NCBI GenBank assembly: GCA_964531165.1
Contig: CAZHEA010000005.1
Span: 16,858-80,857, forward strand
Origin: an uncultured Thiotrichaceae bacterium
GTDB lineage: Bacteria > Pseudomonadota > Gammaproteobacteria > SZUA-229
Length of the DNA stretch: 64,000 nt
Direction: 5' to 3'
A program made the position numbers and the translations under genes. The notes under the pieces are model-generated. The model had not been told where the DNA came from, ran no database searches, and was given only the letters and a program-made list of their open reading frames with translations. How positions within the stretch are numbered: the stretch's first letter is position 1; every line of letters starts with the position of its first letter. Of this stretch, positions 21,027 to 63,049 are shown one piece after another.

Positions 21027-21857
21027 TTAAAAGCGCTTAATCCAGTTAGTCATTGCCAAAAAAGCTTTATTGCGCTGCTCAAGCAATGCATAAATATGAT
21101 CTGAATAGGCAAAATACTCCACTTCAACATCACTACAGAATGCATGAGAGTTGAACGTATCTACAAATTGCTGTGCGTAGTTATAATACTCACGCACACC
21201 ACTTGTATAAATGTATAAATGCTTATTACCTTTATTGTGCAAGCTTTCCATATCATCAATATAATCCTGCTTGTCTGGCAGCTCCCAGTAATACGCATCA
21301 GCTCCGCTTTCACCTGAACCGGATTTCCTGCCGACCGGCAAAAACTTCATCATAATACGGCCTATTAAACCTAACATACGTTTCGGGCTAGCCAGTATCG
21401 GCGCATAACGCTTAATATAAAAACGCCTGGTGGGGTAACCGTAACCATCGAGTAAAATTGAACCGGTAATATCCTCATATTTTACCGCCGCACGATGAGC
21501 TAAATCAGCTCCCGTACATAAGCCCATTACAATAATTTTTGCTGGTGCTACTTTTTCTTTAATAAATTCAATGGCCTCTCCTACATCCTGTAAGTTTCGA
21601 TCTTTGAATGACTGACTATTTGACGCTAATTTTTCACTATCGCCAATACCAGATAAATCAAAACGAAATGAAGCGAAACCCGCCTCCGCTAAATATAGAG
21701 AAAACTCTTTATTCATACGTAACGGTCCAGGACGATGCACCAGACCTGAATTTAAGATCAGAACCAAAGGCCTATCCTGATTTTGTTGCTCACTCTCGGG
21801 CTCAGATAAAATCCCAACCAGATTTTGTTTCTCACCAAATAGAAATGCCTTATCCAT
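21027..21857 (-). CDS. alpha/beta-fold protein resembling exosortase-A-system-associated hydrolase 1; Cys at nucleophile elbow
   Basis: 'FLFGEKQNLVGILSEP...PLVLILNSGLVHRPGPLRMNKEFSLYLAEAGFASFRFDLSGIGDS' fits the hydr1_PEP N-terminal pattern as I recall it. The nucleophile elbow reads 'IIVMGLCTGADLA' (G-L-C114-T-G). Confidence 0.6.
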   Translation of the reverse strand: MDKAFLFGEKQNLVGILSEPESEQQNQDRPLVLILNSGLVHRPGPLRMNKEFSLYLAEAGFASFRFDLSGIGDSEKLASNSQSFKDRNLQDVGEAIEFIKEKVAPAKIIVMGLCTGADLAHRAAVKYEDITGSILLDGYGYPTRRFYIKRYAPILASPKRMLGLIGRIMMKFLPVGRKSGSGESGADAYYWELPDKQDYIDDMESLHNKGNKHLYIYTSGVREYYNYAQQFVDTFNSHAFCSDVEVEYFAYSDHIYALLEQRNKAFLAMTNWIKRF

Positions 21858-21861
21858 TATC

Positions 21862-22647
21862 CTACCCTATTACTTCTATAATTTTATCAATTGACGAGTT
21901 TGGCAGAACTTTAGCTTCTATCTTATTCGCATTTTTCCATTCTGACTCTGTATCGAAATTATGCAGCGTCGCTTTTTTTAAAAAAGTATCATCACTTATT
22001 AAGTGCTCTGCATTATAACTATCGGCATAACTAAAAATATCAATCCTTTTAGTTTTAATTTTTTCTAAATCAGATAATTTTAACGACCCGACTTTATCTC
22101 TGAAACTAAGCGGAAAATCATGGCCAACGAGCTCTGTAGAAGAATCAGTGTTTGACAAAAAGTCCAGATCAAAACGATTAGGATCAACCAGCATCTGATT
22201 ATGTATGGTTTGCAGATCCTTTAAATAAGCTTCGCCATCTACTACCGGATCCCATAAGACCAAACGACTGAACTTATAAGACTCCGAAGCAAATGAGGCT
22301 AACAAAGCTCCATAGCGATAACCCACTACACTGACTTTTCGAGTTGCCGATATTGTTTTAATTTCATCGCATGACAGGGTTATATCTTTGATAAACTGCT
22401 CAACAGAAACCTCATGACTCTGCCCTGATGAATCACCTGTTGCAAAATAATCAAAACGTAAAACATGATAACCGTTAGCCGCTAATTTTTTTGCCAGAAC
22501 GCGCATTACACTGTGCGTTCTACCATATTCAAAACCAATAGGATTACATAATACAATTGATGTATCCTGTAATTGCGAGGTTGCAGAAGGCTGGTGATGA
22601 ATACCAAACAAAGGCTTTTCCGCATCACCAAAAAACAAGGGTATCAC
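21862..22647 (-). CDS. alpha/beta-fold protein resembling exosortase-A-system-associated hydrolase 2; no nucleophile at elbow
   Basis: 'PLFGIHHQP...IVLCNPIGFEYGRTHSVMRVLAKKLAANGYHVLRFDYFATGDSSG' fits the hydr2_PEP-like pattern. The elbow reads 'VSVVGYRYGALLA' (G-Y-R111-Y-G). Confidence 0.6.
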   Translation of the reverse strand: MIPLFFGDAEKPLFGIHHQPSATSQLQDTSIVLCNPIGFEYGRTHSVMRVLAKKLAANGYHVLRFDYFATGDSSGQSHEVSVEQFIKDITLSCDEIKTISATRKVSVVGYRYGALLASFASESYKFSRLVLWDPVVDGEAYLKDLQTIHNQMLVDPNRFDLDFLSNTDSSTELVGHDFPLSFRDKVGSLKLSDLEKIKTKRIDIFSYADSYNAEHLISDDTFLKKATLHNFDTESEWKNANKIEAKVLPNSSIDKIIEVIG

Positions 22648-22701
22648 TCAACTACTCCTTAAAAGAACACACATGCGTATATCCTGATATTAAAATTTAA
22701 A

Positions 22702-25700
22702 TTATTTAAAAACCTTTTTAAATATTGAATTAATCATGGATTTCTTTTTCGTATCTGTTTGCTGAACTTCGTTAGAAGAACTATCATCTTCAGCAAACCC
22801 GCACTGCTCTGCCATATGCTCTAACGAATCAAGTATAATAACCCGCGGATTTATTTTTATTCCAGTTATATCTTTTACCTTCATTATCACCTGCATAGAA
22901 AGCAATGAGTGCCCACCGATATCAAAAAAGTTATCATGCACACTAATGTTTTCAATCGCTGTATCGAGTACTTCAGCCCATATTTTTGCAAGTTGTTTAC
23001 CCGCATAGGTTTCAGGTAAAACTTTTTCATCGTTATCCGCACTATTATCTGCAAATGCATCGGGTAACGCTTTACGATCAACCTTACCGTTTGGTGTTAG
23101 AGGCAACTCCTCTAATTCGACAAAATGTTGTGGCAACATATAATCAGGCAAATCATTTTTAATTAAATCACGCAGTGAAGTTGGCGTAACAGTAACGCCT
23201 TCTGCCACCACAATATAGGCAACCAACCTGGGGTCACCGGCTCTGATTTCATTAACAACCACAACAGCCTGTTCAATCTCGCTCTGTTGTGCAAGTACCG
23301 CTTCTATCTCACCCAGTTCAATTCGAAAACCCCGCACCTTAACCTGATTATCAATTCTCTGGCTATATTCAAGGTCACCACTTTGATGGAACTTAACCGC
23401 ATCACCGGTTCGATACAAACGTTCATCACCTGTACTAAACGGGCTTAAAACATAACGCTCCTCGGTCAGATCATCACGATTTAAATACCCCTTGGTTACT
23501 CCGTCGCCACCAATATATAACTCACCCGGCACACCAACCGGAAGTGGACGTAAATGCTCATCGAGTACATAAAATTGCGTATTATTGATTGGCTTACCTA
23601 TGAGTATAGGGGCATTTGCATCGGTTATTTTATAACAACTTGACCAGACCGTGGTTTCAGTCGGCCCATACATGTTCCATACTTCTTTAACTCGCGGCAA
23701 TAATTCAACCAGCAGATCACGAGGCATGGCTTCACCCCCACAAAGCACTTTAAGCGACGCATCACCCTTCCACTGACAGGCCAGTAAAAGTCGCCAGGTT
23801 GCCGGAGTTGCCTGCATTATAGAAACATCATGCTCTTCCATTAAATCAACCAGGTCATCACCATCGATCGCTTCATCCGTAGTCGCTATCACAACTGTCG
23901 CACCCTGACTCAATGGTAAATACAGTTCTAAAACTGCAATATCAAATGATAATGTCGTCACCGCTAACAAAGTATCATCTGCGGAAAGACCGGGTTTTTT
24001 TGCCATGCTTAAAATAAAATTACCCGCAGCATTATGATGAACCATTACACCTTTAGGCTTACCCGTAGAGCCGGAAGTGTAAATAATATAGGCCAGGTCA
24101 TCAGCACTAATTTTTATATTCGGGTCAGTCACCGGCTGTGAGTTTATCGATTCTTTCTCTACATCAACCTGCACCGGTTTTGTAATATCGGGTAACTGAA
24201 TGCGCTTTAATACACTGGACTGAGTTACCACAAGCTCTGCATTGGAATTTTCCAGCATGTATTGAATACGATCCTGCGGATACTCAGGATCAAGAGGAAT
24301 ATAACAGGCGCCCGCTTTTAAAATACCCAGTGTCGCTATGATCATGTCCAGCGAACGCTCAAGACATACACCAATTAGTGCATTATCTTTCACACCCTGA
24401 TTAATCAGGTAATGAGCAAGCTGGTTGGCTTTATCATTTAATTCTTTATATGTTAGTTCCTCATCGTCACAAATCACCGCTACTTTATCTGCGTTATCTT
24501 CACACTGAGCCTCAAATAGCTGATGAATTATTTTTGGTTGACTAAATGAAGCGACCGTTTTATTCCAGTCTTTAGTAACTTTTTCATACTCTGTATCTGA
24601 TAGAATATTTAAATCGGAAATTGGTGCATCTGGATTACTGACAGCATTTTCCAGTAAAATCTGAAAATGCTCTGCAAATCGTTGCAATGTATCATCTTCA
24701 AATATTTCAGAATTGTATTCGAGTAAGCCGCGAATACCATCCTCCGCCTCCCATAGCCAGGCCAGCATATCAAATTTGGCAGACTGATTATGTAGTTTTT
24801 GAGATTTTACATTACAGGCCTCAAGGTTGATTTCCATAGGGGGTTCCTGAAATGTGAAACCAACCTGAAATAACGGATTATAACTGGTATCACGTTTAGG
24901 CTGCAGACCTTCCACGATCATTTCAAAGGGAAAGTCCTGATTGGCATTCGCACTAAATACCATTTTCCGTACACGTTTTAACACCTCATTAAAACTGGGA
25001 TTACCCGATAAGTCGGTAAAAATTGGAATGGTATTTATAAAGCATCCCATGATTTTTTCCAGCTCAGGCTGATGACTTCGATTTGCAAAAGGTGTCCCGA
25101 CTGACACTTCACTCTGCTTCGAATAAATACCCAGTAAAACAGCATAACCTGCCATCAACGTAATAAACATTGACACACTTTGCTGACGTGAAAGTGCTTT
25201 TAAGTTATTTTTTAATGATAGCGGAAACCATAAGTGATATTCCCTGCCGATCATTGCTTGCATCGGCGGTCTTTGACTATCCAGTGGCAAGTCCAGATAC
25301 TCAGCTTTGCCCTGCAACTGTTGTAACCAGAAATCCAGCTTAGGCGCTAATTGCTCATGCGTCTGATGTTGATTCTGCCAAACGGAATAATCCGCATATT
25401 GTAATTCAGGGTCAACTAAAGATGACGACTGATTATTCAGATATGTTTTATAAAGTAGCGTCAACTCTTCCGCAAACTGCACAATAGAGATATGGTCTAA
25501 AATAATATGATGGAAATTTAAAAACAAGATACATGAAGATTCAGAGCGTTTTATTACACTTGCACGAATCAGCGGGCCTTCTGATAGGTCAAACAGGCGC
25601 ACGGTTTCTTTCTCAATATATTCTTTAACACTTTGTTCAGAATTTAAATCGTCGATCAATGGCAGATCTATCGTCATTTGTGGGCGAACAATTTGAACCA

Positions 25701-25923
25701 GCCCATCATCAGTATCCATAAAAAATGTTCGGAAAGTTTCATGCCTATCAATAATTTCATTAATAGCTTTATGTATTGCTGCTACATTTAACTGCCCTTC
25801 AATATCATATGCAAACGGAATATTATAGGCGGGACTTTCCTGATTTAACTGATTTAAAAACCAGATTTGCTTTTGCGGATATGTTGTTGGAAATACATAA
25901 ACGTCTTCATTATTACTAGTCAC
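22702..25923 (-). CDS. NRPS module C-A-T, A domain predicted glycine-specific
   Basis: C domain 'HHIILD' (aa 138-143). A-domain cores are 'YTSGSTGKPKGV', 'SFDIAVLE', 'NMYGPTETT', 'YRTGD', 'VKVRGFRIELGEIE' and 'PNGKVDR'. T domain 'FFDIGGHSLL'. The hand-extracted specificity code is D-I-L-Q-L-G-M-V-W-K. There is no TE, R or terminal C domain. Confidence 0.95.
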   Translation of the reverse strand: MTSNNEDVYVFPTTYPQKQIWFLNQLNQESPAYNIPFAYDIEGQLNVAAIHKAINEIIDRHETFRTFFMDTDDGLVQIVRPQMTIDLPLIDDLNSEQSVKEYIEKETVRLFDLSEGPLIRASVIKRSESSCILFLNFHHIILDHISIVQFAEELTLLYKTYLNNQSSSLVDPELQYADYSVWQNQHQTHEQLAPKLDFWLQQLQGKAEYLDLPLDSQRPPMQAMIGREYHLWFPLSLKNNLKALSRQQSVSMFITLMAGYAVLLGIYSKQSEVSVGTPFANRSHQPELEKIMGCFINTIPIFTDLSGNPSFNEVLKRVRKMVFSANANQDFPFEMIVEGLQPKRDTSYNPLFQVGFTFQEPPMEINLEACNVKSQKLHNQSAKFDMLAWLWEAEDGIRGLLEYNSEIFEDDTLQRFAEHFQILLENAVSNPDAPISDLNILSDTEYEKVTKDWNKTVASFSQPKIIHQLFEAQCEDNADKVAVICDDEELTYKELNDKANQLAHYLINQGVKDNALIGVCLERSLDMIIATLGILKAGACYIPLDPEYPQDRIQYMLENSNAELVVTQSSVLKRIQLPDITKPVQVDVEKESINSQPVTDPNIKISADDLAYIIYTSGSTGKPKGVMVHHNAAGNFILSMAKKPGLSADDTLLAVTTLSFDIAVLELYLPLSQGATVVIATTDEAIDGDDLVDLMEEHDVSIMQATPATWRLLLACQWKGDASLKVLCGGEAMPRDLLVELLPRVKEVWNMYGPTETTVWSSCYKITDANAPILIGKPINNTQFYVLDEHLRPLPVGVPGELYIGGDGVTKGYLNRDDLTEERYVLSPFSTGDERLYRTGDAVKFHQSGDLEYSQRIDNQVKVRGFRIELGEIEAVLAQQSEIEQAVVVVNEIRAGDPRLVAYIVVAEGVTVTPTSLRDLIKNDLPDYMLPQHFVELEELPLTPNGKVDRKALPDAFADNSADNDEKVLPETYAGKQLAKIWAEVLDTAIENISVHDNFFDIGGHSLLSMQVIMKVKDITGIKINPRVIILDSLEHMAEQCGFAEDDSSSNEVQQTDTKKKSMINSIFKKVFK

Positions 25924-25956: not shown

Positions 25957-28900
25957 TTACATTGATGCCATTAATTCTGAATACTTAACTGCATAATCAT
26001 TTCTATCCAGTGCTTCTACCAGAGGAATCTGTTCGCCCTGTAAATGCTCATTTTCAGAAATAACTTTAGCCCATTGTTCAATTGTTGGCGATTCAAACAA
26101 ACTGCTAATCGGTAAATCAATTGATAAATACTTTTTAAGTCTTGAAACAACTTGTGTCAGCAGCAATGAATGCCCGCCTAGTTCGAAAAAGTCATCGGAT
26201 ATACCGACATCGGAAATACCCAAAGCTGGTTTCCAGATTTTGGCTATGCTAATTTCCATTTCAGATTCAGGTGCAATATATTCAGTTGACAAATTCGGGC
26301 GTTCCAGACCCTCAAAAGAATCATCATCAAGATCATCTCCAAACTCATCCAGCTTACGCAGCTTACGGGCTTCATTTTTGTATTCTATAAACTCAAGCGG
26401 GCTAACAATAACCTGCGGCGAATGAAAGCTCGATAGCAAAGTTTCGATTGCGCGTAAACCTTCAGCATTTGTCATGCCGGCTTTAAGTCCCATCTCAAAA
26501 AACAGATCACTGGCTGTTTTTTCTGCCTGTACTACTTCAGTTCTATTCGACTTCAAAGATAACAGAACACCGGGATCTACACGTTTCATAATAAACTGAT
26601 TAACCACAACAAGCACTTCACCTGTTGCATTTGTAATCACTACATCAAATATTGAAGTCTGACTACCCTGCCCCTCTGCAGCCGAATACACCACATGTGA
26701 AAACATTTTTTTAGTTAACATCTTAAAAACTGTAATGTGTGAATATGAAATCGGAATATATAAGTCTTTAACCGGATCATAATCCGGGTTCAACGACTGT
26801 GCGGTACCGGTTGCCATATCCATAATCGCTGGATGCAATACATAATCACTAAGTTCATCAATATACTTATCGGCAATTTCCATTTCAACAATGGCTTCTT
26901 TTTTACCGAAATAAATAGCATTCATACAGCGCCATCTATCGCCAAATATCAGGTGATTATGCTCAGCCGAACCTTTCAGTTCAACTTTATCCTTATTGCA
27001 ACGCTCAATTATATTTTCTATATGGATATTTTCTGGCGCAGCTGAATCAATGTATTCCACCACCCCTCTAACATTCTCTTCACCAAACTCACTTTCAATT
27101 AAAAACTCGGTATTATTAACCGTACGTGTTAACTCAATCTTAATGCGCTTTTCTTCATCACCTTCTACAACAAACGGTGACACAAAAAACACATCTGATA
27201 AACGTACGGCTTTGACACCGGGGTTTTCTAAAGTGAATGCAGCGCGAGCCAGCTCTAAATATGCTGTTCCTGGTATTAATGAAACTTTATTTTTAGATCT
27301 ATGTTCATCAATAATCCAATGAGTTTTTGCGCTCAAATTAGCTGAATATTCGACTGTTTCAGCCTTCAGCTTTTGCTTGCGGGTATAAAAGTAATGATCA
27401 GTTAACTCTTCAGCACTATCGGTAGCTCCACCTAGCTGCGAAGCCATGCCAGTTTCAGCCCATACCCCCCAGTTAGCTGCAACCACATTTATTCCATCAG
27501 TATCTTTTTTATACTGGGCATAGGCATTTAAAAACGCATTCGCTGCAGTGTAATCTACCTGACCACTTAAGCCTAGCTCGGTACTGATTGATGAGAACAG
27601 GAATATAAAATCAGGTTTATGCTGCGCCAGTGCTTTATCAAGATTAATTAAACCATCAACCTTCGGCGACAGAACCTTTCGAGCATCCTCTAATGTTTTA
27701 AAAGCAATTAAATTATCGTCAACAATACCGGCCGTATGGAATACACCATTTAGATCACCTAACTCATTAACAGATGAATCAACTGCTGATTGCAATGCAT
27801 CACAATCACTGACATCTACATTAAATGAAAGTATTTTTACATTATTAATTTCAAGGCTTTTTAACTTTTCAATTCTTTGCGCAATAGCCGCATCAAAAGA
27901 CTGAGCATTTCCCCATTGTGATTTATCAGGTAATGGCGTTCTATTTAATATCACCAGATTTGCATCGTAGGTTTTAACCAGGTATTCCGCCAGCTTAAAA
28001 CCAATACCCCCTATGCCACCGGTGATTAGATAATTACCACCTTTTTGTAATGCCGGGGAGACATTCTCTGCTTCACTTACACTTAAATGCTTATATGACT
28101 TAACAAATCGATGTGTACCTCGATAGGCAATATCTTCATCATCTGTGTGCTGCAATACATCTGCACAAATCAGATCCAGCTGCTCCTGCTGTTTCCACTG
28201 TTGTTCTATCTGAAAATCAACATCAATCATTTTGCATGACACATTATTAATTTCCTGTGTCATTACCTTTACCGGCCCCAGCATCGTTGCTTTGAGCGGA
28301 CTCTTAATTGTCTCTGCTGATACCTGTTGACTATAATTAGTAACCGCACTTAGCTGAACTTCGTTATCCGGTTCATTAGCAGCAAAATATCGTGCAATAA
28401 ACAGCAGGCTATTAAAGCCTTTAACAAGATCTTCATTTGCTGCTGTCAAACCGGAGTCACCATTATCAATAGTCCAACCATGTAAAATATGACTGATTTT
28501 ATGTGCCGCTGTTTTATTTATAGATTTAAATGCGCTTGCATAATCCTGCTCGGATTGCGGATTGATCTGATATTCAAATTCAGATATTTTATTATAACTA
28601 TCACCGGCAATTATTGAATAACAGTTTAAATTCCAGTCTGTCAGTTTCTCGATAAGAGATTTTGCATTCTCATTCTCGCTAACAAAGCAGACTATACTCA
28701 GCGCCGCATCATCTTCCTTTGCGACATAATTAATCGCAGGAGAGGTGTCCCAGCCAGGTTGATAAAACCAGTCTGAATAATTTTGTTTCTGTAAGTTTGT
28801 TTCTGCATTTAATTCAAGCCCGCCAAACCCTGGCTCAATCCAGTAGTACTGATGCTCAAACGGATAAGTGGGTAATGGAATACGCCGGCGACTTAAGTCA

Positions 28901-31494
28901 CCATGTGCCAAATTCCAGTTAATATCAATTCCTGCAAGCCACAATTTACCGAATGCAGATAACGCCATACGGCTATCATTATCGGGCTTTTTAGGATGAC
29001 GAATGGTTTGTATAATACTGTGGCCTTGCTGCTTATCTGAACTTGAACGCGCAAAGGTCGATAACGTATTACCCGGACCACACTCAATAAACACGGCATC
29101 AGCTGTTTGCATCAGCGTTGACATACCCGCCGCGAATCGAACCGTGCCACGTAAATGACCAGCCCAGTAATCAGCGTTAGAAACCAGCTCAGGATCAGCC
29201 ATTTCACCTGTTGTATTTGAAACAAACGGTATTGTCATTTCACCGAAGGTAACATCAGCAAACAGTGATTTAAATTCGTCTAAAATAGGATCCATCATTG
29301 ATGAGTGGAAAGCATGCGATGTGTGCAATATTGTTGTATCAATATTTTTCTGTTTAAGATCATCAACCAGTTTATTAACCGCATCATCGGTACCGGAAAT
29401 CACACTGAGGCCAGGTGCATTAATTCCCGCAATCGACAGGTCTTTATTTAAATACACTGTTACCTGATCTTCATCTAATGGCACTACCAGCATCGAGCCC
29501 TTTTCCAGGCCCTGCATTAAGCGTCCACGCGCAGCTACCAGTTTCAGCGCATCTTCTAAACTGAATAAGCCAGCAATACATGCGGCAACATATTCGCCAA
29601 TACTGTGACCAATCATGGCATCTGCATTAATGCCCCATGATTGCAATAGTCTGGTCATCGCATATTCAATAGTGAACAATGCGGGTTGAGTAATTTGTGT
29701 TTCTGCCAGCTTTGCTGATGCTGTATCCAGCTCACTGTCCTGCGGATACAACAAACCTGTAATATTTAGACCCAAACTTGCATTTAACAATGAAGCACAT
29801 TGATCAACCGCATCTTTGAAAACACTTTCATTTTCATACAGGCCTTTGCACATATTGGCATATTGTGAGCCCTGACCGGTGAACATGAAATAAACAGACT
29901 GTTTATTGGGGTTACTCTTCTGACTTATCTGCCGGCTAATATCTTCACCAGACAATGCATGTTTTAAATCTTCTACAGAATTTGCAACCACAATACGTCT
30001 TGATAACTGAGCCTGCCGCCCGACTTTTAAAGTATGCGCTGCATCTGATAAATTAGTCTCCGGATGCTCAGTAAAAAATGTCTGCAGATTTGTGGTGACA
30101 TTATCCAGAGCCGGTGTCGTGCGTGCCGACAGACAGAATAAATGATAACCATCATATTGAGTTGTAGCGGGTAATTCTGGCGCTTCTTCTAAAATAACAT
30201 GCGCATTAGTACCACCCACACCTAAAGAATTAATCGCTGCTCGGCGTTTACCATCTACGTTCCAGTCCTGTAAACTGCTATTAATATAAAACGGGCTGTC
30301 ATCTAAATCTAAAACCGGATTGGGTTTATTAAAATGCAAACTGGCGGGCAATTGTTTATGCTTCATTGATTGCACAATTTTAATTAAACCCACACCACCG
30401 GCTGCAGTATCTAAATGACCGATATTGGTTTTCACCGAACCGATTGCACAATAGTCACTTTTATCGGTCTGGGTTCGATACGCCTGATTTAATGCGGTCA
30501 CTTCAATCGGGTCACCCACCGGTGTGCCGGTACCATGCGTTTCGATATAAGTAATCGACTCTGCATCCACATCGGCAATCATTAATGCTTCAGTAATGGC
30601 AGCGGCCTGACCGTCAACACTCGGTGCCAGATAACCAACCTTACTTGAACCATCATTATTAATTGCTGAGCCTTTAATCAGCGCATGAATTGTATCGCCA
30701 TCATTAATCGCGTCTTCCATGCGCTTTAAAACAACCTGCACTGCACCACTGCCAAAAACCGTACCCATGGATTTCTCATCAAAGGCACGACAGTGACCAT
30801 CAGGCGATTGAATCTCACCTTCTTCATACATGTAACCAACACGGTGTGGCATTTCGATGGTAACACCACCCGCCAGTGCCATATCACATTCACCACTCAG
30901 CAATGACTGAGAGGCTAAATGCAGTGCAACCAGTGATGTTGAGCAGGCGGTTTGTACATTGATACTCGGGCCCTGCAAATTTAAACAGTAGGACACACGG
31001 GTGGTTAAAAAATCTTTATCGTTAGACGTATGACGCGCTAAAAATAACCCCAGAGATTTCATTAAATCCGGATTAGTAAACAAGTTATACGGCATGTATG
31101 CATTATGACCTGATCCACCAAATACACCGATGGAACCAGTATATTGCCGAGGATCATAACCCGCATGCTCTAATGCTTCCCATGACACTTCTAAAAAATG
31201 CCGATGTTGCGGATCCATAATCGACGCATCTTTTGGACTAAAGCCAAATAACGACGCGTCAAACATTTCCATGTTATCTAATGGCCGACCAATTTTCTGG
31301 TAATTAGGGTTATCTAATGTGCTTTGAGGCACACCTCTTTGCAAAAGTTCTTCGTCACTAAATTCCGTATAAGACTCAATGCTATTTTTTAAGTTATACC
31401 AGAAATCATCAACATTATTTGCACCGGGCAAGCGTGCTGCCATCCCGACAATTGCAATATCCGTATCTTCAAATTCAACTTCGTGATCACTCAT
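25957..31494 (-). CDS. type I PKS module KS-AT(malonyl)-KR-DH-ACP
   Basis: KS has 'QTACSTSLVALH', 'ETHGTGT' and 'NIGH'. AT has 'GHSIGEYVAACIAG' and 'HAFHS' (malonyl-type). KR has 'ITGGIGGIG' and 'VDYTAANAF'. The PS-DH-like region has 'IIDEHRSKNKVSLIPGTAYLE' and 'LHPAIMDMA'. The carrier motif is 'FFELGGHSLL'. Confidence 0.95.
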   Translation of the reverse strand: MSDHEVEFEDTDIAIVGMAARLPGANNVDDFWYNLKNSIESYTEFSDEELLQRGVPQSTLDNPNYQKIGRPLDNMEMFDASLFGFSPKDASIMDPQHRHFLEVSWEALEHAGYDPRQYTGSIGVFGGSGHNAYMPYNLFTNPDLMKSLGLFLARHTSNDKDFLTTRVSYCLNLQGPSINVQTACSTSLVALHLASQSLLSGECDMALAGGVTIEMPHRVGYMYEEGEIQSPDGHCRAFDEKSMGTVFGSGAVQVVLKRMEDAINDGDTIHALIKGSAINNDGSSKVGYLAPSVDGQAAAITEALMIADVDAESITYIETHGTGTPVGDPIEVTALNQAYRTQTDKSDYCAIGSVKTNIGHLDTAAGGVGLIKIVQSMKHKQLPASLHFNKPNPVLDLDDSPFYINSSLQDWNVDGKRRAAINSLGVGGTNAHVILEEAPELPATTQYDGYHLFCLSARTTPALDNVTTNLQTFFTEHPETNLSDAAHTLKVGRQAQLSRRIVVANSVEDLKHALSGEDISRQISQKSNPNKQSVYFMFTGQGSQYANMCKGLYENESVFKDAVDQCASLLNASLGLNITGLLYPQDSELDTASAKLAETQITQPALFTIEYAMTRLLQSWGINADAMIGHSIGEYVAACIAGLFSLEDALKLVAARGRLMQGLEKGSMLVVPLDEDQVTVYLNKDLSIAGINAPGLSVISGTDDAVNKLVDDLKQKNIDTTILHTSHAFHSSMMDPILDEFKSLFADVTFGEMTIPFVSNTTGEMADPELVSNADYWAGHLRGTVRFAAGMSTLMQTADAVFIECGPGNTLSTFARSSSDKQQGHSIIQTIRHPKKPDNDSRMALSAFGKLWLAGIDINWNLAHGDLSRRRIPLPTYPFEHQYYWIEPGFGGLELNAETNLQKQNYSDWFYQPGWDTSPAINYVAKEDDAALSIVCFVSENENAKSLIEKLTDWNLNCYSIIAGDSYNKISEFEYQINPQSEQDYASAFKSINKTAAHKISHILHGWTIDNGDSGLTAANEDLVKGFNSLLFIARYFAANEPDNEVQLSAVTNYSQQVSAETIKSPLKATMLGPVKVMTQEINNVSCKMIDVDFQIEQQWKQQEQLDLICADVLQHTDDEDIAYRGTHRFVKSYKHLSVSEAENVSPALQKGGNYLITGGIGGIGFKLAEYLVKTYDANLVILNRTPLPDKSQWGNAQSFDAAIAQRIEKLKSLEINNVKILSFNVDVSDCDALQSAVDSSVNELGDLNGVFHTAGIVDDNLIAFKTLEDARKVLSPKVDGLINLDKALAQHKPDFIFLFSSISTELGLSGQVDYTAANAFLNAYAQYKKDTDGINVVAANWGVWAETGMASQLGGATDSAEELTDHYFYTRKQKLKAETVEYSANLSAKTHWIIDEHRSKNKVSLIPGTAYLELARAAFTLENPGVKAVRLSDVFFVSPFVVEGDEEKRIKIELTRTVNNTEFLIESEFGEENVRGVVEYIDSAAPENIHIENIIERCNKDKVELKGSAEHNHLIFGDRWRCMNAIYFGKKEAIVEMEIADKYIDELSDYVLHPAIMDMATGTAQSLNPDYDPVKDLYIPISYSHITVFKMLTKKMFSHVVYSAAEGQGSQTSIFDVVITNATGEVLVVVNQFIMKRVDPGVLLSLKSNRTEVVQAEKTASDLFFEMGLKAGMTNAEGLRAIETLLSSFHSPQVIVSPLEFIEYKNEARKLRKLDEFGDDLDDDSFEGLERPNLSTEYIAPESEMEISIAKIWKPALGISDVGISDDFFELGGHSLLLTQVVSRLKKYLSIDLPISSLFESPTIEQWAKVISENEHLQGEQIPLVEALDRNDYAVKYSELMASM

Positions 31495-31578: not shown

Positions 31579-34500
31579 CTACTTCTGTCTAGCCCGGCGA
31601 CGATTCAATGTATTTTTACGCGCATCTTTACGTGCTTTTGCGCGGTCTTCACTTTCCGATAGTTTGGAATTAGTGTCAGTATCCGCAGATAGATAATCAC
31701 TAAACTGACGAATCGTTGGAAAGCGAAACATATCTATCATTTTTACCGGCTGGTCAATTGCTTCGCGCAACTTACTTAACACTTCAACCACGAGTAATGA
31801 GTGGCCACCAATATCAAAGAAGTTATCATCCAGCCCTATTTTTTCTAAATTCAACACTGCCTGCCAGCAGGCAACAATGGATTCCTGCAAAGCACTTTCC
31901 GGCTTAACAAAACTTGCACGACTGGCTGTCTGTTTTTTCTGCTCCGGCGCAGGCAATGCATTTCTGTCAGTTTTTCCATTTGGCGTTAATGGCAACGCTT
32001 TAAGTTCAACAAAAATACTCGGCACCATAAACTCGGGCAGGTCAGCAGCCAGTACTTTTTTCAAAGCAACGGCATCAATTGTCTGAGCCGGATTTGCAAC
32101 CACATAAGCAACCAGCCGCTTATCATTAGGCGTGTCTTCGCGTAAAACTACCACCGCGTCTGAAACCGTATCATCATTTGACAATAATGATTCTATCTCA
32201 CCCAGCTCAATCCGGTAGCCGCGAATTTTTATCTGATGATCGATACGCCCCAGACATTCCAGAACTCCGTCATCGTTATACTGAACCAGATCTCCAGTGC
32301 TGTACATGCGACTACTTGAATCATCAACAAAGGGATTATTAATAAATTTTTCAGCGGATAAATCTGCTCGCTGGTGATAACCGCGTACCACCCCGTCACC
32401 GGCAATATAAAGTTCACCCGGCGTATTCACCGGCACCGGTTGTTTAAATTTATCCAGCACATAAAGCTGTGTATTGGCGATAGGTTTTCCGATTAATATT
32501 TTTTGATCACTGGCATTTATATTTTGTGTTGTTGACCAGATAGTTGTCTCGGTCGGCCCATACATATTGGTTACCGTATTCTGAACTCTGGACGTTAACT
32601 GTTTAGCCAGATTCATCGGAAACGCTTCACCGCCAATCATAATATGTTTTATTTTATTTAACTTATCAGCACTATCGCTATCCGCAACCAGCATACTTGC
32701 CATTGAAGGCGTACACTGTAAATGAGTCACACTTCGTGACTCAATAATATCTGCAACGCTTAAGTCATGTTCAGCTTCACTCACTGCCTGCTTAATGCTC
32801 AATTTTCGTAAGTTATTCAGCGGCGGCAAATGTTTTAAAACATTTTCTGTATCCAGGCCATAATCAATCAAGCAGCCAATTTCATTGACGCCAATTTCCT
32901 TAACCCGGTCAACCATTGCCAGACAACGTTCAGGTGTACCGAATAAGCCACTGGTTTCGTAATAACGTAAAAATGCAAATTCCAGAATACCATCAAAATC
33001 CTCATCCGTAATATTTTCAAAAAATTCGTCAAGTGTCTGACCGGTCTCTTCTGATAAGGCTTTGAATGTTGGAAAATTCCAGGCGGCTGCTTTAACCAGA
33101 AACATCGCACTTTTAAGATATTTTTTCATCGGCGCGCGAGCCAGATTTTTTACTTTTTCATCATCATCACCGACTAAAGTATGCAGCAATAATGTGACAT
33201 GACCTTCACCCGCATAACCGGCTTTTTTATAGGCTTCGCGATAAATTTCAATATTCACTGCCACCTCATCAACCGTTTGCCCTAGCAAATGGGTTAGAAT
33301 ATTTGCACCTGTTTCACCTGCCTGTCTAAAGGTTTCCGGATTGCCAGCCGTAGTCACCCATATTGGTAACTTTTTCTGTACCGGACGCGGTAAGGTTCTG
33401 ACTTTGACATCTTTACCATCGTGACCAGTAAATTCAAGTGTCTCTCCACTCCAGAGTTTCTGAACCGTCTTCGCCGATTCAAACATAACATTTTTAGCAT
33501 CTGCAAAATTTTGCGGCATAATAACAAAATCATTCGGCTGCCAGCCTGCTGCAATAGCAAGGCCGGCACGACCTTTTGAGATATTATCAATCATTGACCA
33601 GTCTTCGGCAATGCGAATAGGGTGATGCAACGGCACCACACAACTGCCCGCACGAATGTGAATATTTTCAGTAATCGCGGCTAATGCTGCACTGGTGACT
33701 GACGGATTTGGATATAGCCCACCAAATGAATGAAAATGCCGCTCCGGTGTCCATACCGCTTTAAAATTATTTTTATCACCAAACTTGGCGCTTTCCATTA
33801 ACAGGCGATACGGATCATCATCGTATTCAGATTCATCGTCTGCCACATTCCAGTAAAACAAACTAAATTCGATATCCTGATCTGGATAAGCCGTACGCGT
33901 TTTTTTAGATGATTTACGTTGCGCGTCAGAAAACAGGGCCAGCTCATATCCGCTGGCCAGCGTCCAGAAAATTTCCAGTACGGATATATCAAAAGAAATA
34001 CTGGTCACTGCCAGCCACACACCATGCGGGTCTGTAATAACACTGTTCATACCATGGAAAAAGTTCGCCACATTTGCATGCTCAACCATCACACCTTTAG
34101 GCTTGCCGGTTGAACCCGACGTATAAATGGTATAAGCCAGATGATGGCTGGTGACAGATGTAACTGGATTGGTCTGCGCAAACGAAGCGAGTGAACTTTG
34201 AGCGGTGTCAATAAATAACACATTAACAGTCAGGTTATGAAGGTAATCTACATGATCATTTTGAGTAATCACTGCAGCAACCTGTGCATCTTCCAGCATA
34301 TACTCAATACGATCTTTAGGGTAAGTCGGATCAAGAGGCAAATAAGCCGCACCGGATTTTAACACCCCCAGCATACATACGATCATATCGATTGAACGAT
34401 CTAATAATACACCGACCAGTTGATCGGGTTTTAAGTTTTTAGAGATAAGATAATGTGCAACCTGATTAGCACGTTGATTTAACTCTTTATAGCTAATCTC

Positions 34501-36234
34501 AGTACCTGAAAAAGACAGGGCTGTAGCCGCAGGTGTTTTTTCAACCTGTTTTTCAAACAGCTGATGAATACATTGGCTATTGTCATAGTTACTTTCTGTT
34601 TGATTCCATTGGTTAATTAATTTTTCGTAATCAGCAGTGGATAATAATGAGGTATCTGCAAGACTTGCCTGTGAATTACTCACTGTATTGTCTAAAAACG
34701 AAATAAATAATTTTTGCAGCTGGGCTATTTTATTTGCACTATAACTATGTTCATTAAAATGCCAGACAACTTCCGCAGTCTGAGTATTAATCGCTAAAAC
34801 CAGATCCGCATCGGTGCAGGAATCTATTTGCTGATTGCTTTGTACTTCAGTAATGACTAGCGTTTTATTAATTGAGTTAAGCTTTAGTTCCGGATGCCGG
34901 CTAATTAAATCTTTACAGTAACGCCCATCTTCTGAACTCCGGGCAAGTTTTTGTTCGGTTGAGTCTAAAATATCAGCAACTGCAGCAGCAAAATCAATAT
35001 CGAATTTAAGCGGTACACATGTCTCTATCATCAGTTTGTTAATTGCATTTTTTTCAGGCTGATAAAAAAACAGATTGAACTCAGACTGACAGGTAAGACG
35101 CGCAAAAAACAATGTTAAGTAACTCTGCATTGTTTGCAGACTTTCACCTGATAACTGCGGCGTATTTTGCGATGACGATACATAAGACGACTTGCCTGCA
35201 CTCTGTGCCTTTTCAGATTCAGTGGATGGCACTAACTGGTTTAATGCTTGTAACTGCTGCAACCAGTTATCTTCATGTTTACAGAAGCTTTCATTAAATT
35301 GTGTTAATTCAGCTGCTTTAGCCTGATCAATTACAGGTAATACATCACCTACTTTTATAGATGTTTGCTTTACCAGTTCATTAACACTTATGTTATTTCC
35401 CTGACTATCCATAATGCTGGAACATGAGATCACTGCATCTTTAGCGGAAATATCCAACGTAGAATCCAGAGATATAATCTGCCCTGGTTGAGCTGCTGCT
35501 GTATTGCAGACAGTTGCCTCATGAATATAAAAAACATTATCGTTTAGTAAAATTTTAGGTAACGAAACAGGATTGGAATAAGGACCGAAGTGTAACGCAC
35601 GTATGGTTGCATCAATTTTATCAGCATCACATTGCCAGTCTAAAATAGCCATTGCCGGAATACGCTGACAACCGCGGTAAAAAACCGATTCACCGGCATC
35701 TTGCGCAAGCCTGGTTAATTTATTATTTGACAAATCCAGCATTAAATCACTAAAACTGGTTAATGCGGCTTCATAACATTTTGCATTTAAAGTGAATGCG
35801 GTTTCATTTGATTCAAGTTCAAATTTAACCTGCTTTAATACATGTCCTTCATCTACCGCTTCAGTCATTTCATGCCAGGTAATACCGTGCTCGGTTTCCT
35901 GATTGTATATCGCCCATGTCGTGACGTTTAAGCCGGCATAGCCGGGCAGTAAGCCATCATGAAAATTGATTGCGGTATTTTTTGCGAGTTTTAAAACCAC
36001 AGAGGGTATAATTTTAAGGTGTGTAATACTGAAAATGTAATCAACAGAGCCTAAAGCTATAAGCTGCTTCTGATCGGCAACACTGAATACGCTAAAACCA
36101 GAATTATTTGCCCAGTTAATAATTGAAGCATCATCACTAACAACCGCTTTAACTTCTATATTCTGGTCTTTAATAACCTGATAACACTGTATTAATAGTG
36201 ACTTTCCGCCAAACAGATAACATGTTTTACTCAT
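31579..36234 (-). CDS. NRPS initiation-type module: formyltransferase-like domain, partial C-like region, A domain (Gly code) split by a luciferase-like monooxygenase, T domain
   Basis: aa 1-300 carry 'INFHDGLLPGYAGLNVTTWAI...GITWHEMTEAVDEGHVL' (Fmt-type N/H/D residues). aa ~370-545 resemble the C-terminal half of a condensation domain and lack HHxxxD. The A domain has 'YTSGSTGKPKGV', 'SFDISVLE', an insert, then 'HLQCTPS', 'NMYGPTETT', 'YSTGD', 'IKIRGYRIELGEIE' and 'PNGKTDR'. T domain 'FFDIGGHSLL'. The C-terminal tail KARKDARKNTLNRRRARQK is basic. Confidence 0.9.
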   Translation of the reverse strand: MSKTCYLFGGKSLLIQCYQVIKDQNIEVKAVVSDDASIINWANNSGFSVFSVADQKQLIALGSVDYIFSITHLKIIPSVVLKLAKNTAINFHDGLLPGYAGLNVTTWAIYNQETEHGITWHEMTEAVDEGHVLKQVKFELESNETAFTLNAKCYEAALTSFSDLMLDLSNNKLTRLAQDAGESVFYRGCQRIPAMAILDWQCDADKIDATIRALHFGPYSNPVSLPKILLNDNVFYIHEATVCNTAAAQPGQIISLDSTLDISAKDAVISCSSIMDSQGNNISVNELVKQTSIKVGDVLPVIDQAKAAELTQFNESFCKHEDNWLQQLQALNQLVPSTESEKAQSAGKSSYVSSSQNTPQLSGESLQTMQSYLTLFFARLTCQSEFNLFFYQPEKNAINKLMIETCVPLKFDIDFAAAVADILDSTEQKLARSSEDGRYCKDLISRHPELKLNSINKTLVITEVQSNQQIDSCTDADLVLAINTQTAEVVWHFNEHSYSANKIAQLQKLFISFLDNTVSNSQASLADTSLLSTADYEKLINQWNQTESNYDNSQCIHQLFEKQVEKTPAATALSFSGTEISYKELNQRANQVAHYLISKNLKPDQLVGVLLDRSIDMIVCMLGVLKSGAAYLPLDPTYPKDRIEYMLEDAQVAAVITQNDHVDYLHNLTVNVLFIDTAQSSLASFAQTNPVTSVTSHHLAYTIYTSGSTGKPKGVMVEHANVANFFHGMNSVITDPHGVWLAVTSISFDISVLEIFWTLASGYELALFSDAQRKSSKKTRTAYPDQDIEFSLFYWNVADDESEYDDDPYRLLMESAKFGDKNNFKAVWTPERHFHSFGGLYPNPSVTSAALAAITENIHIRAGSCVVPLHHPIRIAEDWSMIDNISKGRAGLAIAAGWQPNDFVIMPQNFADAKNVMFESAKTVQKLWSGETLEFTGHDGKDVKVRTLPRPVQKKLPIWVTTAGNPETFRQAGETGANILTHLLGQTVDEVAVNIEIYREAYKKAGYAGEGHVTLLLHTLVGDDDEKVKNLARAPMKKYLKSAMFLVKAAAWNFPTFKALSEETGQTLDEFFENITDEDFDGILEFAFLRYYETSGLFGTPERCLAMVDRVKEIGVNEIGCLIDYGLDTENVLKHLPPLNNLRKLSIKQAVSEAEHDLSVADIIESRSVTHLQCTPSMASMLVADSDSADKLNKIKHIMIGGEAFPMNLAKQLTSRVQNTVTNMYGPTETTIWSTTQNINASDQKILIGKPIANTQLYVLDKFKQPVPVNTPGELYIAGDGVVRGYHQRADLSAEKFINNPFVDDSSSRMYSTGDLVQYNDDGVLECLGRIDHQIKIRGYRIELGEIESLLSNDDTVSDAVVVLREDTPNDKRLVAYVVANPAQTIDAVALKKVLAADLPEFMVPSIFVELKALPLTPNGKTDRNALPAPEQKKQTASRASFVKPESALQESIVACWQAVLNLEKIGLDDNFFDIGGHSLLVVEVLSKLREAIDQPVKMIDMFRFPTIRQFSDYLSADTDTNSKLSESEDRAKARKDARKNTLNRRRARQK
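32830..33879 (-). other. luciferase-like monooxygenase (MupA/Atu3671-type, TIGR04020-like) domain inserted between A-domain cores A4 and A5
   Basis: aa ~786-1135: 'FSLFYWNVADDE...AKFGDKNNFKAVWTPERHFHSFGGLYPNPSVTSAALAAITENIHIRAGSCVVPLHHPIRIAEDWSMIDNISKGRAGLAIAAGWQPNDF'. It is flanked by 'SFDISVLE' (A4) and 'NMYGPTE' (A5). Confidence 0.8.
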
Positions 36235-48547: not shown

Positions 48548-49723
48548 TTACCTACTTGTCCTGTTCCAAACACCGGATGAGGTAGAAAAAAATAATTTAA
48601 AAAATGAAACTGCAAAAGCAGCATTTAGTGATGCAATGAACACCGGCAATTTCATCAGCGAATAAAGAGGCATTCTTTCTTTCCAGAAAAAAGCCATGAA
48701 AGCATAAATATAAAACAATAATTGAGCTATAAACAGTAACATAAATAATTCATTGCCTATTAACAGCAATGAACTGACAAACGCCAAAACCATGAAGTGT
48801 GGAACAAACCAGCGGAAAACTTTATGTGAAATATACGCGAAAAACCTTAAAGTCAGTCTGGGCATTATTGATTTCTTAAGCCGGGCTAAAGCCTGATAAT
48901 TCCCAAGGCCGATTCGAATCCTTCTCTTAAACTCATCCTCTACATTTGGTGCGACTTCTTCAATTGATATTGCTTCAGGCTCATACACAACAGTATGATT
49001 ATTTTCAGCAAGATTCATTACTATAGTAAAATCATCAACTATAGTATCTGTCGGTATTGCAGTGTAAAATGACTTCCTAATCGCATAGTTGGCACCATTT
49101 GCACCTAAGAGAGCACCTATCCTTCCTTCATAAAACTTAAGTACATTTTCAATTTTCCAATACATACCATCAGCATTATCACCATTAACATCAATTAACT
49201 TTAGCTTTCCACAGACAGCACCAACATTTTCATCCACAAAATGTCTGACCAACTTATTAACCACCTGATCATCAAACATGGTATTCGCATCAGATAAAAT
49301 GATGATTTCCTCTGAAACAGAATCAATTATTTCATTTATAACCGATACTTTACCGCGCCTTTCTTTAAAATCAAAAAACACCAATCTATCATTTTTAATA
49401 GCATGCAATATTTCGTTAGTACCATCATCACTCGCATCAGAGCCGATATATATTTTATATTTATCCTCGGGATAATCGATAGTCAGTAGATTTTCAACTC
49501 TTTCAGCAATATGTTTTTCTTCATTAAATGCTGCAATAACAATTGCGACTTGTGGATTGTCTATAGTGTTGTTAATCCGGCGTTCAATATTTTTATTAAC
49601 GTACTTGATATCACGAATAGCTTGTAAAATCATATTTATAAACACAAGCAATACTGGATACAACAAATACGTATAAATAATTAAAAAAACCGACATAAAA
49701 AAAACAAGTTGTAAAATACCCAT
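48548..49723 (-). CDS. family 2 glycosyltransferase with N- and C-terminal TM segments
   Basis: 'VAIVIAAFNEEKHI', 'IYIGSDASDDGT', 'IIILSDANTMF' (DxD-like) and 'EFKRRIRIGLG', plus a hydrophobic C-terminal third. Confidence 0.8.
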   Translation of the reverse strand: MGILQLVFFMSVFLIIYTYLLYPVLLVFINMILQAIRDIKYVNKNIERRINNTIDNPQVAIVIAAFNEEKHIAERVENLLTIDYPEDKYKIYIGSDASDDGTNEILHAIKNDRLVFFDFKERRGKVSVINEIIDSVSEEIIILSDANTMFDDQVVNKLVRHFVDENVGAVCGKLKLIDVNGDNADGMYWKIENVLKFYEGRIGALLGANGANYAIRKSFYTAIPTDTIVDDFTIVMNLAENNHTVVYEPEAISIEEVAPNVEDEFKRRIRIGLGNYQALARLKKSIMPRLTLRFFAYISHKVFRWFVPHFMVLAFVSSLLLIGNELFMLLFIAQLLFYIYAFMAFFWKERMPLYSLMKLPVFIASLNAAFAVSFFKLFFSTSSGVWNRTSR

Positions 49724-50238
49724 TACTTTTCCTTAGCTGCTCGCAGAACTCGTGCGGGAACGCCAACAACTGTGACATCATTAGGTATACTTTTCACGAC
49801 CACTGCATTAGCACCGACTTTCACATTATTGCCTATCGTTAAATCACCAATTATTTTAGCGCCTGAGCCCACAAAAATATTATCACCTAATTCAGGGAAA
49901 CCAGATTTTTCTTCTCCGATGACAACCCCGCTTTCAATAGCAATATTTTTACCGCCCTTAACGCTTGAGTTGATTATAACACCTGTAGGGTGTAACAAAA
50001 CGAAACCCTCATCAAAATCAGCACTGATACCGATTACACAATGATTTAAAAGCTTATTCAAATATTGAAAAAAATAGGCGAATAATTTTAAATTATGACT
50101 TTCGAACCAACGCATAGTTCTATAAAGAATAACGGCAGATGTACCATCAGATAAAAATATTTTATATATTGAAACATTTCTACCAACTGAATCCTCATAT
50201 ATTTTTTGTTTATATGACAAATCTTGCTGTAATATCAT
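49723..50238 (-). CDS. hexapeptide-repeat O-acetyltransferase (serine acetyltransferase-like)
   Basis: 'GVIINSSVKGGKNIAIESGVVIGEE...LGDNIFVGSGAKIIGDLTIGNNVKVGANAVVVKSIPNDVTVVGVPARV' is left-handed beta-helix hexapeptide repeats. Confidence 0.8.
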   Translation of the reverse strand: MILQQDLSYKQKIYEDSVGRNVSIYKIFLSDGTSAVILYRTMRWFESHNLKLFAYFFQYLNKLLNHCVIGISADFDEGFVLLHPTGVIINSSVKGGKNIAIESGVVIGEEKSGFPELGDNIFVGSGAKIIGDLTIGNNVKVGANAVVVKSIPNDVTVVGVPARVLRAAKEK

Positions 50239-51419: not shown

Positions 51420-52066
51420 TACAAAGCCCTCTTCAATGTATCAAACTGGTAGCCTCTTTCTATCCAATATGGCAATAGTAATTTTAAAGCATCCAGTGAG
51501 TTATTATTGTCATCATGAAATAGAATAACATCACCATTACTGACAGTTGATAGTTCAAATTTCCTGAATATCTCCTCACCACATAAGCCTTGATAATCCA
51601 GGCTATCACGTGACCACATAGCAATTGGTACTTTTATCTTCAACATTTTTGCTATAAAAGAAAACGTCATCTCACCTCTTGGCGGACGGAAATGTCTAAT
51701 CGCTACACCATCAATTGAGTTAAGAATAGAATTTAGCTTCATTACAGATTTTATTTGATCGACAGAACTAAGTTTTGAAAAATCATTATGCTCCATCGTA
51801 TGGTTACAAATATAATGACCTTTATCACTTATTGACTTAGCAATGTCAAAATTTTCATTTACACATTCACCGACCAAAAAAAACGTAGCTTTTACAGAAA
51901 ATTTATCAAGCAAAGCTAAAAAACTAGATGTATATCCAACATTCGGACCATCATCAAATGTTAAATATATTACTTTTTTATCAGTGTTTTCTTTAAATAT
52001 AACCTTAGTATTGGGAAGAAGCAGAAGAGTCATTCTTCTCAAAATTCTATATATTTTACCGTTCAT
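51419..52066 (-). CDS. polysaccharide deacetylase (CE4 / NodB homology)
   Basis: 'IYLTFDDGPN', 'ATFFLVGE', 'ICNHTMEHND', 'FRPPRGE' and 'ILFHD' are the five CE4 motifs, in order. Confidence 0.85.
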   Translation of the reverse strand: MNGKIYRILRRMTLLLLPNTKVIFKENTDKKVIYLTFDDGPNVGYTSSFLALLDKFSVKATFFLVGECVNENFDIAKSISDKGHYICNHTMEHNDFSKLSSVDQIKSVMKLNSILNSIDGVAIRHFRPPRGEMTFSFIAKMLKIKVPIAMWSRDSLDYQGLCGEEIFRKFELSTVSNGDVILFHDDNNNSLDALKLLLPYWIERGYQFDTLKRAL

Positions 52067-53220: not shown

Positions 53221-53221
53221 T

Positions 53222-55871: not shown

Positions 55872-55884
55872 AAATAATTCACAT

Positions 55885-58226: not shown

Positions 58227-58281
58227 TCCACTCTTACGCTCAAAATTTCACACTATTAAAGGCTCTGCTTGAGGATATATT

Positions 58282-59280: not shown

Positions 59281-59293
59281 AGCATGGTGTCCT

Positions 59294-60583: not shown

Positions 60584-60599
60584 TATCTATGACTATTAT

Positions 60600-63034: not shown

Positions 63035-63049
63035 ATTAAACCCGAATCC

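Follow-up and report, generated by a model that had tools for sequence, protein, structure and literature searches.

What do two small hydrolase-like proteins do at the end of an assembly line, when neither of them has the Ser expected at its nucleophile elbow? The question is raised by a 64,000-nucleotide stretch of DNA from an uncultured Thiotrichaceae bacterium (contig CAZHEA010000005.1, positions 16,858 to 80,857), referred to here as the window, in which a hybrid nonribosomal peptide synthetase-polyketide synthase (NRPS-PKS) line is followed on the minus strand by a hydr2-like gene (21862..22647, GTG start, 261 amino acids) and a hydr1-like gene (21027..21857, ATG start, 276 amino acids). 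Both products have the alpha/beta-hydrolase fold. The hydr2-like protein carries the elbow motif GYRYG, with Arg at residue 111, and is without a catalytic His; the hydr1-like protein carries GLCTG, with Cys at residue 114, together with His254 and Asp137. A spacer of 54 nt (22648-22701) separates the NRPS gene from the hydr2-like gene, and one of 4 nt (21858-21861) lies between the two hydrolase-like genes. Both spacings had been given in an earlier note on this DNA and agree with the coordinates in the list of open reading frames (ORFs); the elbow motifs that it wrote as G-Y-R111-Y-G and G-L-C114-T-G are found at those residues, and the N-terminal strings that it quoted, HVLRFDYFATGDSSG and ASFRFDLSGIGDSEK, are present in the two proteins. 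The answer that we favor, with moderate confidence, is that the pair constitutes an obligate two-part enzyme that off-loads the product of the assembly line just upstream, a line lacking a thioesterase (TE), and that it acts on carrier-protein thioesters.

Both hydrolase-like ORFs are real genes and not chance reading frames, because their homologues reach 79% identity and their families are large. Word-indexed searches with the pair returned 421 and 121 matches, and exhaustive searching returned 4574 cluster representatives at E<=1e-3, with 2320 at E<=1e-10 for the Cys half. An ORF of 136 amino acids on the plus strand (21608-22018), antisense to both genes, has no support that we could see and is regarded as spurious. 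In profile searches of solved structures, R111 and C114 fall on the Ser that serves as nucleophile in Ser hydrolases, and H254 of the hydr1-like protein falls on the catalytic His; no normal Ser elbow was found elsewhere in either protein, confirming that R111 and C114 occupy the elbow. Comparison of the two family profiles with hhalign shows them to be paralogues (probability 99.3%) and places R111 and C114 in one column and H254 of hydr1 opposite E236/W237 of hydr2. Conservation follows the same residues: R111 is present in 115 of 115 hydr2-like sequences, C34 in 113 and W237 in 109, with E40, H45, H61 and D133 also kept, while C114, H254 and D137 are each present in 108 of 109 hydr1-like sequences. 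Thus the Cys of one protein and the Arg of the other are where the earlier note had placed them, yet they are no oddity of this locus; they are hallmarks of the whole superfamily, the curated hidden Markov models (HMMs) discussed below included. Confident AlphaFold2 models (pLDDT 94.0 for hydr2-like, 89.3 for hydr1-like) show the canonical strand-elbow-helix arrangement in both proteins, and in the hydr1-like protein C114 lies at the elbow, D137 after strand beta6 and H254 after strand beta8. Foldseek gives TM-scores of 0.6-0.74 to lipases and esterases; lipases and feruloyl esterases are the top structural matches, with LuxD, an acyl-ACP thioesterase (1tht), and DcsB, a TE that acts in trans, among the others. 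The hydr1-like protein is the likely catalyst of the pair.

Do the two proteins work together? A pattern scan of GTDB species genomes yielded at least 591 loci, the best 80 of which, at species level, were analyzed; counts of upstream context refer to the 70 of these with at least 3 kb upstream. The hydr1 gene stands immediately 3' of hydr2 in 64 of the 80 loci and is divergent from it in 4 more (68/80 adjacent), and most of the others are cut by contig ends. In 48 of 67 loci the hydr2 stop and the hydr1 start overlap, 4 nt being the usual extent, and in 61 of the 67 the genes are no more than 30 nt apart. Natural fusions of hydr2 to hydr1 that keep the Arg, the Cys and the His occur in Ampullimonas aquatilis (four sequences, one of them on a 3.6-Mb contig), Mycetohabitans rhizoxinica, Burkholderia gladioli and one metagenome cluster, and it is in these four that the elbows were read. 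Single genes of fusion length are found in Azospirillum oryzae (596 amino acids) and Rhizobium tumorigenes (579 amino acids), their halves matching the families TIGR03101 and TIGR03100. Altogether, fused proteins are present in at least six lineages, in the order hydr2 then hydr1. That the two genes are an obligate pair forming one functional unit is therefore strongly supported, and the proposal of a Cys enzyme joined to a non-catalytic partner gains from both the overlapping genes and the fusions.

A question remains, what does this unit act on? The line upstream is encoded on the same strand by three genes. The loading NRPS (31579..36234, 1551 amino acids) combines a formyltransferase-like (F) domain, an A domain into which a luciferase-like monooxygenase (MOx) is inserted and a T domain; its homologue at survey locus L081 has a Condensation match between the F and A domains too. 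The PKS module (25957..31494, 1845 amino acids) reads KS-AT-KR-DH-carrier by domain matches and motifs, with the active-site Cys and the AT motifs GHSIG and HAFH, of malonyl type. The terminal NRPS module (22702..25923, 1073 amino acids) is C-A-T (Condensation 12-449, AMP-binding 470-814, PP-binding 977-1037), with the motif HHIILDH in its C domain and the motif GGHSL. Neither a TE nor an R release domain was found on the assembly line of the window, whose last gene ends in the T domain. The specificity codes of the A domains, extracted by hand, are DILQMGMIWK and DILQLGMVWK, both of which look Gly-like. Given the domain order and these putative Gly codes, we would expect the product to be a short Gly-(C2 unit)-Gly chain with a capped N terminus.

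The same association recurs in other genomes. NRPS/PKS domains lie within 10 kb of the pair in 61 of the 70 loci, and this link is the commonest context of the clade, across many phyla. In 45 of the 70, the A-domain match ends 276-679 nt before hydr2, which leaves space for a T domain and not for a T domain plus a TE. The assembly lines beside the pair vary widely; the type found in the window, F-A(MOx)-T with KS-AT-KR-DH-CP (CP, carrier protein), is shared by at least 11 loci spread over several phyla, and in a relative with 78% identity (L082) the whole gene order is kept, the giant downstream gene included. A phosphopantetheinyl transferase (PPTase) gene adjoins the pair in about 17 loci; all-against-all clustering of the ORFs of the 80 loci, in a search for a third universal neighbor, returned this gene only, the remainder being antisense artefacts. 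A different setting is seen on plasmid pBRH01 of Mycetohabitans rhizoxinica (L087, 4388-13788) and in Azospirillum oryzae (L091, 4306-11957), where the cassette contains an acyl carrier protein (ACP), an acyl-CoA-dehydrogenase-like protein, an amino acid--[ACP] ligase, DUF1839, a GH2 glycosidase and a fused hydr2-hydr1 protein. This conserved cassette is another carrier-protein system tied to the hydr2/hydr1 unit. The off-loading role that we propose follows from the absence of a release domain upstream, the obligate pairing and the recurrence in other genomes, and carrier-protein substrates are suggested by the PPTase and the amino acid--[ACP] ligase/ACP neighbors. These counts also bear on the proposal that in the window a megasynthase replaces the ligase and ACP of a known exosortase-associated cassette. 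The pair does follow a hybrid NRPS-PKS line, but the arrangement is no one-off, as 61 of 70 loci carry NRPS/PKS genes; and the claim that it offers the first concrete chemical hint about that cassette fails in the sense in which it was made, since there is no unique fusion here, only one member of a widespread variant.

Might the pair instead proofread, in the manner of a type II thioesterase, by clearing mis-primed or stalled carrier domains, with release being non-enzymatic or encoded elsewhere? Lone alpha/beta-hydrolase genes for proteins of about 250 amino acids beside NRPS/PKS genes are typically editing thioesterases, and the presence of LuxD among the structural matches points the same way. 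However, neither protein matches the Pfam Thioesterase family (PF00975, the type II TE family) at E<=1. Editing TEs use Ser and work alone, whereas here a Cys enzyme is linked to an Arg-elbow paralogue by gene overlap or fusion. In the 45 lines that directly adjoin the pair there is no space for a TE, so that the chain must be released by something else, and the pair is also present in exopolysaccharide (EPS) loci without a megasynthase. We consider proofreading improbable.

In the off-loading reading, the chain carried on the phosphopantetheine of the last T domain would be passed to Cys114 as a thioester acyl-enzyme, with His254 and Asp137 assisting, and would then be released from Cys114 to a nucleophile or acceptor. 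By analogy with polyhydroxyalkanoate (PHA) synthase, Cys in place of Ser would make transfer, with a hydroxyl or an amine as the acceptor, more likely than simple hydrolysis. The hydr2-like protein, with its Arg elbow, would be a non-hydrolase partner that either contributes binding, for example of a phosphate or carboxylate group of the acceptor or of the carrier arm, or gives a second thiol (C34). This C34 sits at the position of the oxyanion-hole 'HG' motif of Hydrolase_4, and the hydr2-like protein may thus not be inert but have its own thiol site.

Several points weigh against this reading. At a few loci (L017, L019, L027 and L045) the pair comes before the megasynthase genes or is divergent from them, and no megasynthase lies within 10 kb in 9 of the 70 loci; therefore the pair is not strictly dependent on a dedicated assembly line. 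Plain hydrolysis, instead of transfer, may be what the pair carries out. Given the conserved C34, the label 'inactive partner' may be wrong for the hydr2-like protein, and D137 is a candidate catalytic acid from conservation and secondary structure only.

To which family does the pair belong? The earlier note had called it exosortase-A-type, by likeness to TIGR03101 and TIGR03100 ('hydrolase 2 / hydrolase 1, exosortase A system-associated'), which in NCBIfam are hypothetical equivalogs without an assigned function. The relation itself stands: TIGR03101 (hydr2_PEP) is the top NCBIfam match of the 261-residue protein (E = 1.5e-23, 83.7 bits) and TIGR03100 (hydr1_PEP) that of the 276-residue protein (E = 1.4e-15, 57.4 bits), the best models in the right order, compared with about 1e-4 to 1e-9 for generic esterases. 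Membership does not stand, as HMM scoring puts both proteins far under the curated cut-offs (83.7 vs 202.75 bits for TIGR03101, 57.4 vs 168.45 bits for TIGR03100). Because of these scores, the window pair is placed as a sister clade of the exosortase-A equivalogs and not among their members. Likewise, 10 unfused hydr2-like homologues all miss the TIGR03101 cut-off, with at most 117 bits, although two of them are labelled 'exosortase A-associated hydrolase 2' by JGI; the pairs of Luteibacter and of L086 and six fused proteins fall under both cut-offs, and the best 150 matches of the exhaustive search are all in the sister clade. No plasmid or chromid record was found to be annotated as exosortase-associated.

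The elbow preference of the two curated families was read by probing their HMMs with point mutants, in place of alignment to true members. TIGR03101 scores the hydr2-like protein highest with Arg (R 83.7 > K 81.7 > S 80.4, A 80.3, C 79.7 bits), and TIGR03100 scores the hydr1-like protein highest with Cys (C 57.4 > A 51.6, S 51.4, R 50.3, D 50.0 bits). Exchanging the residues shifts each protein toward the other family: R111C raises the TIGR03100 score of hydr2-like from 35.4 to 42.4 (+7 bits), and C114R raises the TIGR03101 score of hydr1-like by 4 bits. As a control, the Ser-esterase family EstD gains from C114S. Given that the profiles prefer Arg and Cys, the curated exosortase-associated families thus have these odd elbow residues in common with the pair.

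These results also bear on whether the pair could be ordinary, unrelated esterases of the Hydrolase_4 type, their exosortase-family likeness being generic similarity of fold. The missed NCBIfam cut-offs would fit, as would the alignments, which cover N-terminal halves only (residues 5-146 for TIGR03101, 9-137 for TIGR03100), and Pfam, whose matches are confined to Hydrolase_4/Abhydrolase_1 (Hydrolase_4, PF12146, at 33.7 bits for the 261-residue and 37.5 bits for the 276-residue protein; gathering score 27). But TIGR03101 and TIGR03100 outrank the next unrelated NCBIfam families, UilS lactonase for the 261-residue protein (3e-4) and EstD for the 276-residue protein (8.2e-9), by many orders. The hydr2-then-hydr1 order is kept and the halves of the fusions match TIGR03101 and TIGR03100 respectively; Arg and Cys are just the elbow residues that the curated HMMs favor, and the EstD control behaves oppositely. 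The ordinary-esterase explanation is largely refuted, and we give it very little credence.

The family likeness raises the matter of exopolysaccharide. The window does contain an XrtA-type EPS locus (48548..63685, minus strand), which forms the context of the pair and is a separate operon. It holds genes for export, a chain-length determinant, a Tyr kinase, an outer-membrane protein, an ATPase, deacetylases and an O-antigen-ligase-like protein, and further for a flippase, a glycosyltransferase and an acetyltransferase. TIGR03027 (199.1 > 180) and TIGR03007 (331.9 > 278.85) are above their cut-offs, and TIGR03015 (302 < 324.5) and TIGR03018 (185 < 230.65) just under them. The exosortase connection drawn in the earlier note thus holds as far as this locus goes and fails in that the 64 kb of the window yielded neither an exosortase gene nor a PEP-CTERM tail. 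The EPS locus lies about 26 kb from the pair, with plus-strand glycoside-hydrolase genes between. Closer linkage is found elsewhere. In the Gammaproteobacteria near the window pair, XrtA-type EPS genes above cut-offs lie 5-8 kb off (L086, L057, L058, L064); PrsK/PrsR regulators considered beside L086 proved to be NtrB/NtrC. The tightest NRPS-to-EPS linkage seen is that of Variovorax paradoxus VAI-C (L088, CP063167.1 2393525-2419308), where NRPS, NRPS, PPTase, hydr2, hydr1, Wza and Wzc genes run on one strand, followed after Wzc by genes for a sugar transferase, GDP-fucose synthase, glycosyltransferases and a flippase. Over the whole survey, Wza, Wzc or priming-glycosyltransferase genes are within 10 kb of the pair in 11 of 80 loci, and any EPS-class gene in 21 of 80, which suggests that EPS genes, far from universal, are enriched near the pair, no background set having been compared.

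Could the pair then be, say, an esterase or de-acylase of an EPS or envelope glycan that works apart from the NRPS-PKS, so that its adjacency to NRPS genes is neighborhood only? It is indeed found in Luteibacter, Dyella and Rhodanobacter (Xanthomonadales) within XrtA-type EPS loci that have no megasynthase nearby, in Rhizobium as the fusion-length gene next to lipopolysaccharide and glycosyltransferase genes, and in the Bep-type EPS cluster of Burkholderia, where the B. gladioli version is a hydr2-hydr1 fusion of 617 amino acids. In the Bep cluster of Burkholderia cenocepacia, Bcam1334 is annotated as a TIGR03100-like hydrolase, for which a quality-control role was suggested (PMC3584217). Yet no signal peptide was found in either the hydr2-like or the hydr1-like protein, so that the step of the pair is cytoplasmic, whereas EPS trimming is periplasmic. 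Adjacency on the same strand to a gene that ends in a T domain, in 45 of 70 loci and many phyla, is far beyond coincidence, and the PPTase and amino acid--[ACP] ligase/ACP neighbors indicate carrier-protein substrates. An action on glycan alone is thus unlikely, much as proofreading is.

Regardless, polysaccharide genes often neighbor the pair, and for this reason a glycan or a lipid-linked sugar may be considered a candidate acceptor for the off-loaded chain. In its widest form, which we put forward tentatively and with well under even confidence, the proposal is that hydr2/hydr1 is a cytoplasmic, carrier-protein-dependent acyl, aminoacyl or peptidyl transferase that would move the products of NRPS/PKS lines, amino acid--[ACP] ligases or acyl-ACP onto a glycan, for example the lipid-linked repeat unit of an EPS, as a Gram-negative, Dlt-like EPS decoration with small groups that assembly lines produce. 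The reaction might then go through a relay of two thiols, C34 on the Arg-elbow side and C114 on the catalytic side. The structure of the Bep polysaccharide was solved after extraction in 0.3 M NaOH (PMC7084887), and therefore ester-linked or base-labile groups would have been lost.

Directly downstream of the pair, on the minus strand, lies a gene for a giant secreted protein (12611-20686, 2691 amino acids) that carries three Golvesin_C domains and numerous bacterial TSP3 repeats. The 78%-identical relative has an orthologue in the corresponding place, and the giant protein may belong to the same functional neighborhood as the pair. Between hydr1 and the giant gene there is only a 340-nt AT-rich spacer (20687-21026), in which no convincing terminator or promoter was found. 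At the position of this spacer, close relatives carry on the opposite strand a gene for 251 amino acids without a family match (L082 11631-12386, L083 4970-5725); the 251-residue gene of L082 and a 247-residue gene beside the pair at L081 are not related to each other. Just upstream of the NRPS-PKS genes, the window encodes a surface protein of 831 amino acids (36729-39224, minus strand; PKD, Big_9 and Sde0182_C), and CbhB-like glycoside hydrolase and PelZ-like pectate lyase genes (40587-45124, plus strand) lie between the two clusters. The surface protein and the glycoside hydrolase and lyase genes suggest that the source of the window is a polysaccharide-degrading marine gammaproteobacterium. 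Three further minus-strand ORFs (45154-47361, 47388-48533 and 39330-40133, of 735, 381 and 267 amino acids) have no Pfam or NCBIfam match, with two of the three located where the EPS locus ends.

How does the pair compare with what has been described? Full-text literature searches brought up no work that deals with the pair, with its association with NRPS genes or with the canonical cassette, the only mention being the TIGR03100 annotation of Bcam1334; the window pair is one member of a widespread variant that we have not found described, and its families are named and uncharacterized. Bcam1334 (PMC3584217) shares with it the TIGR03100 likeness and is set in an EPS cluster. From the gene order of similarly organized EPS clusters we infer that the 617-residue protein of B. 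gladioli, which keeps the Arg, the Cys and the His, is equivalent to Bcam1334; these differ from the window proteins in being fused, in having no adjacent NRPS/PKS and in being only about 30% identical to them.

TIGR03101 and TIGR03100 resemble the window pair in being its best HMMs in the right pairing and gene order, in their preference for Arg and Cys at the elbows and in the XrtA-type EPS locus found in the window and in relatives. They differ in that the window pair scores below their cut-offs, in that its partner genes are NRPS-PKS and in that the window has no exosortase gene. The canonical cassette, which by the family descriptions comprises an acyl-CoA ligase (TIGR03098), an ACP and a pyridoxal-phosphate (PLP) decarboxylase (TIGR03099), is not seen beside the window pair; no PLP decarboxylase was found within the window, where the neighbors of the pair are instead F-A(MOx)-T, KS-AT-KR-DH-CP and C-A-T. 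The analysis shows TIGR03100/TIGR03101 to be a small part of a much larger superfamily, built of obligate pairs of a Cys enzyme and an Arg-elbow protein, in which the window clade is the usual companion of NRPS/PKS lines without a release domain, and in which the unit recurs with amino acid--[ACP] ligases and in EPS clusters, that of the Burkholderia Bep biofilm polysaccharide included. What hydr1 and hydr2 do can now be tested in culturable hosts such as Marinobacter lipolyticus, Variovorax paradoxus, Cellvibrio and Burkholderia. If the glycan-transferase proposal were true, it would give a function to the exosortase-A-associated hydr1/hydr2 families, and many 'orphan' TE-less NRPS/PKS clusters would make matrix modifications and not free metabolites.

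Such a role has a counterpart in the Dlt pathway, in which a cell-surface polymer is esterified in a carrier-protein-dependent manner. There too an adenylating enzyme (DltA ligase), a carrier protein (DltC) and a transfer enzyme (DltB/DltD) are encoded beside glycan-polymer genes, but the proteins are unrelated (DltB is an MBOAT protein, DltD is SGNH-like), and for hydr2/hydr1 glycan transfer is hypothetical. For the catalytic half, the nearest parallels are PHA synthase PhaC, with its G-x-C-x-G lipase box, and the NRPS TE domains ObiF and SulM, alpha/beta-hydrolase folds with a Cys nucleophile, whose thioester acyl-enzyme keeps its group-transfer potential and favors transfer or cyclization over hydrolysis. 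The hydr1-like protein has the same G-x-C-x-G elbow with His and Asp; PhaC, ObiF and SulM differ in having no Arg-elbow paralogous subunit, and the searches made here detected no sequence relationship. Release or transfer by a Cys acyl-enzyme together with a non-hydrolytic paralogue is a chemistry that we have not found described for assembly lines. The pair also resembles the trans-acting TEs and acyltransferases that remove acyl groups from carrier proteins, such as the myristoyl-ACP thioesterase LuxD (1THT), fungal DcsB and the type II TEs, with which it shares fold, size and a stand-alone position beside synthases that end in a carrier protein; these enzymes, however, have Ser as their nucleophile and act alone, whereas the window pair has Cys and an obligate Arg-elbow paralogue.

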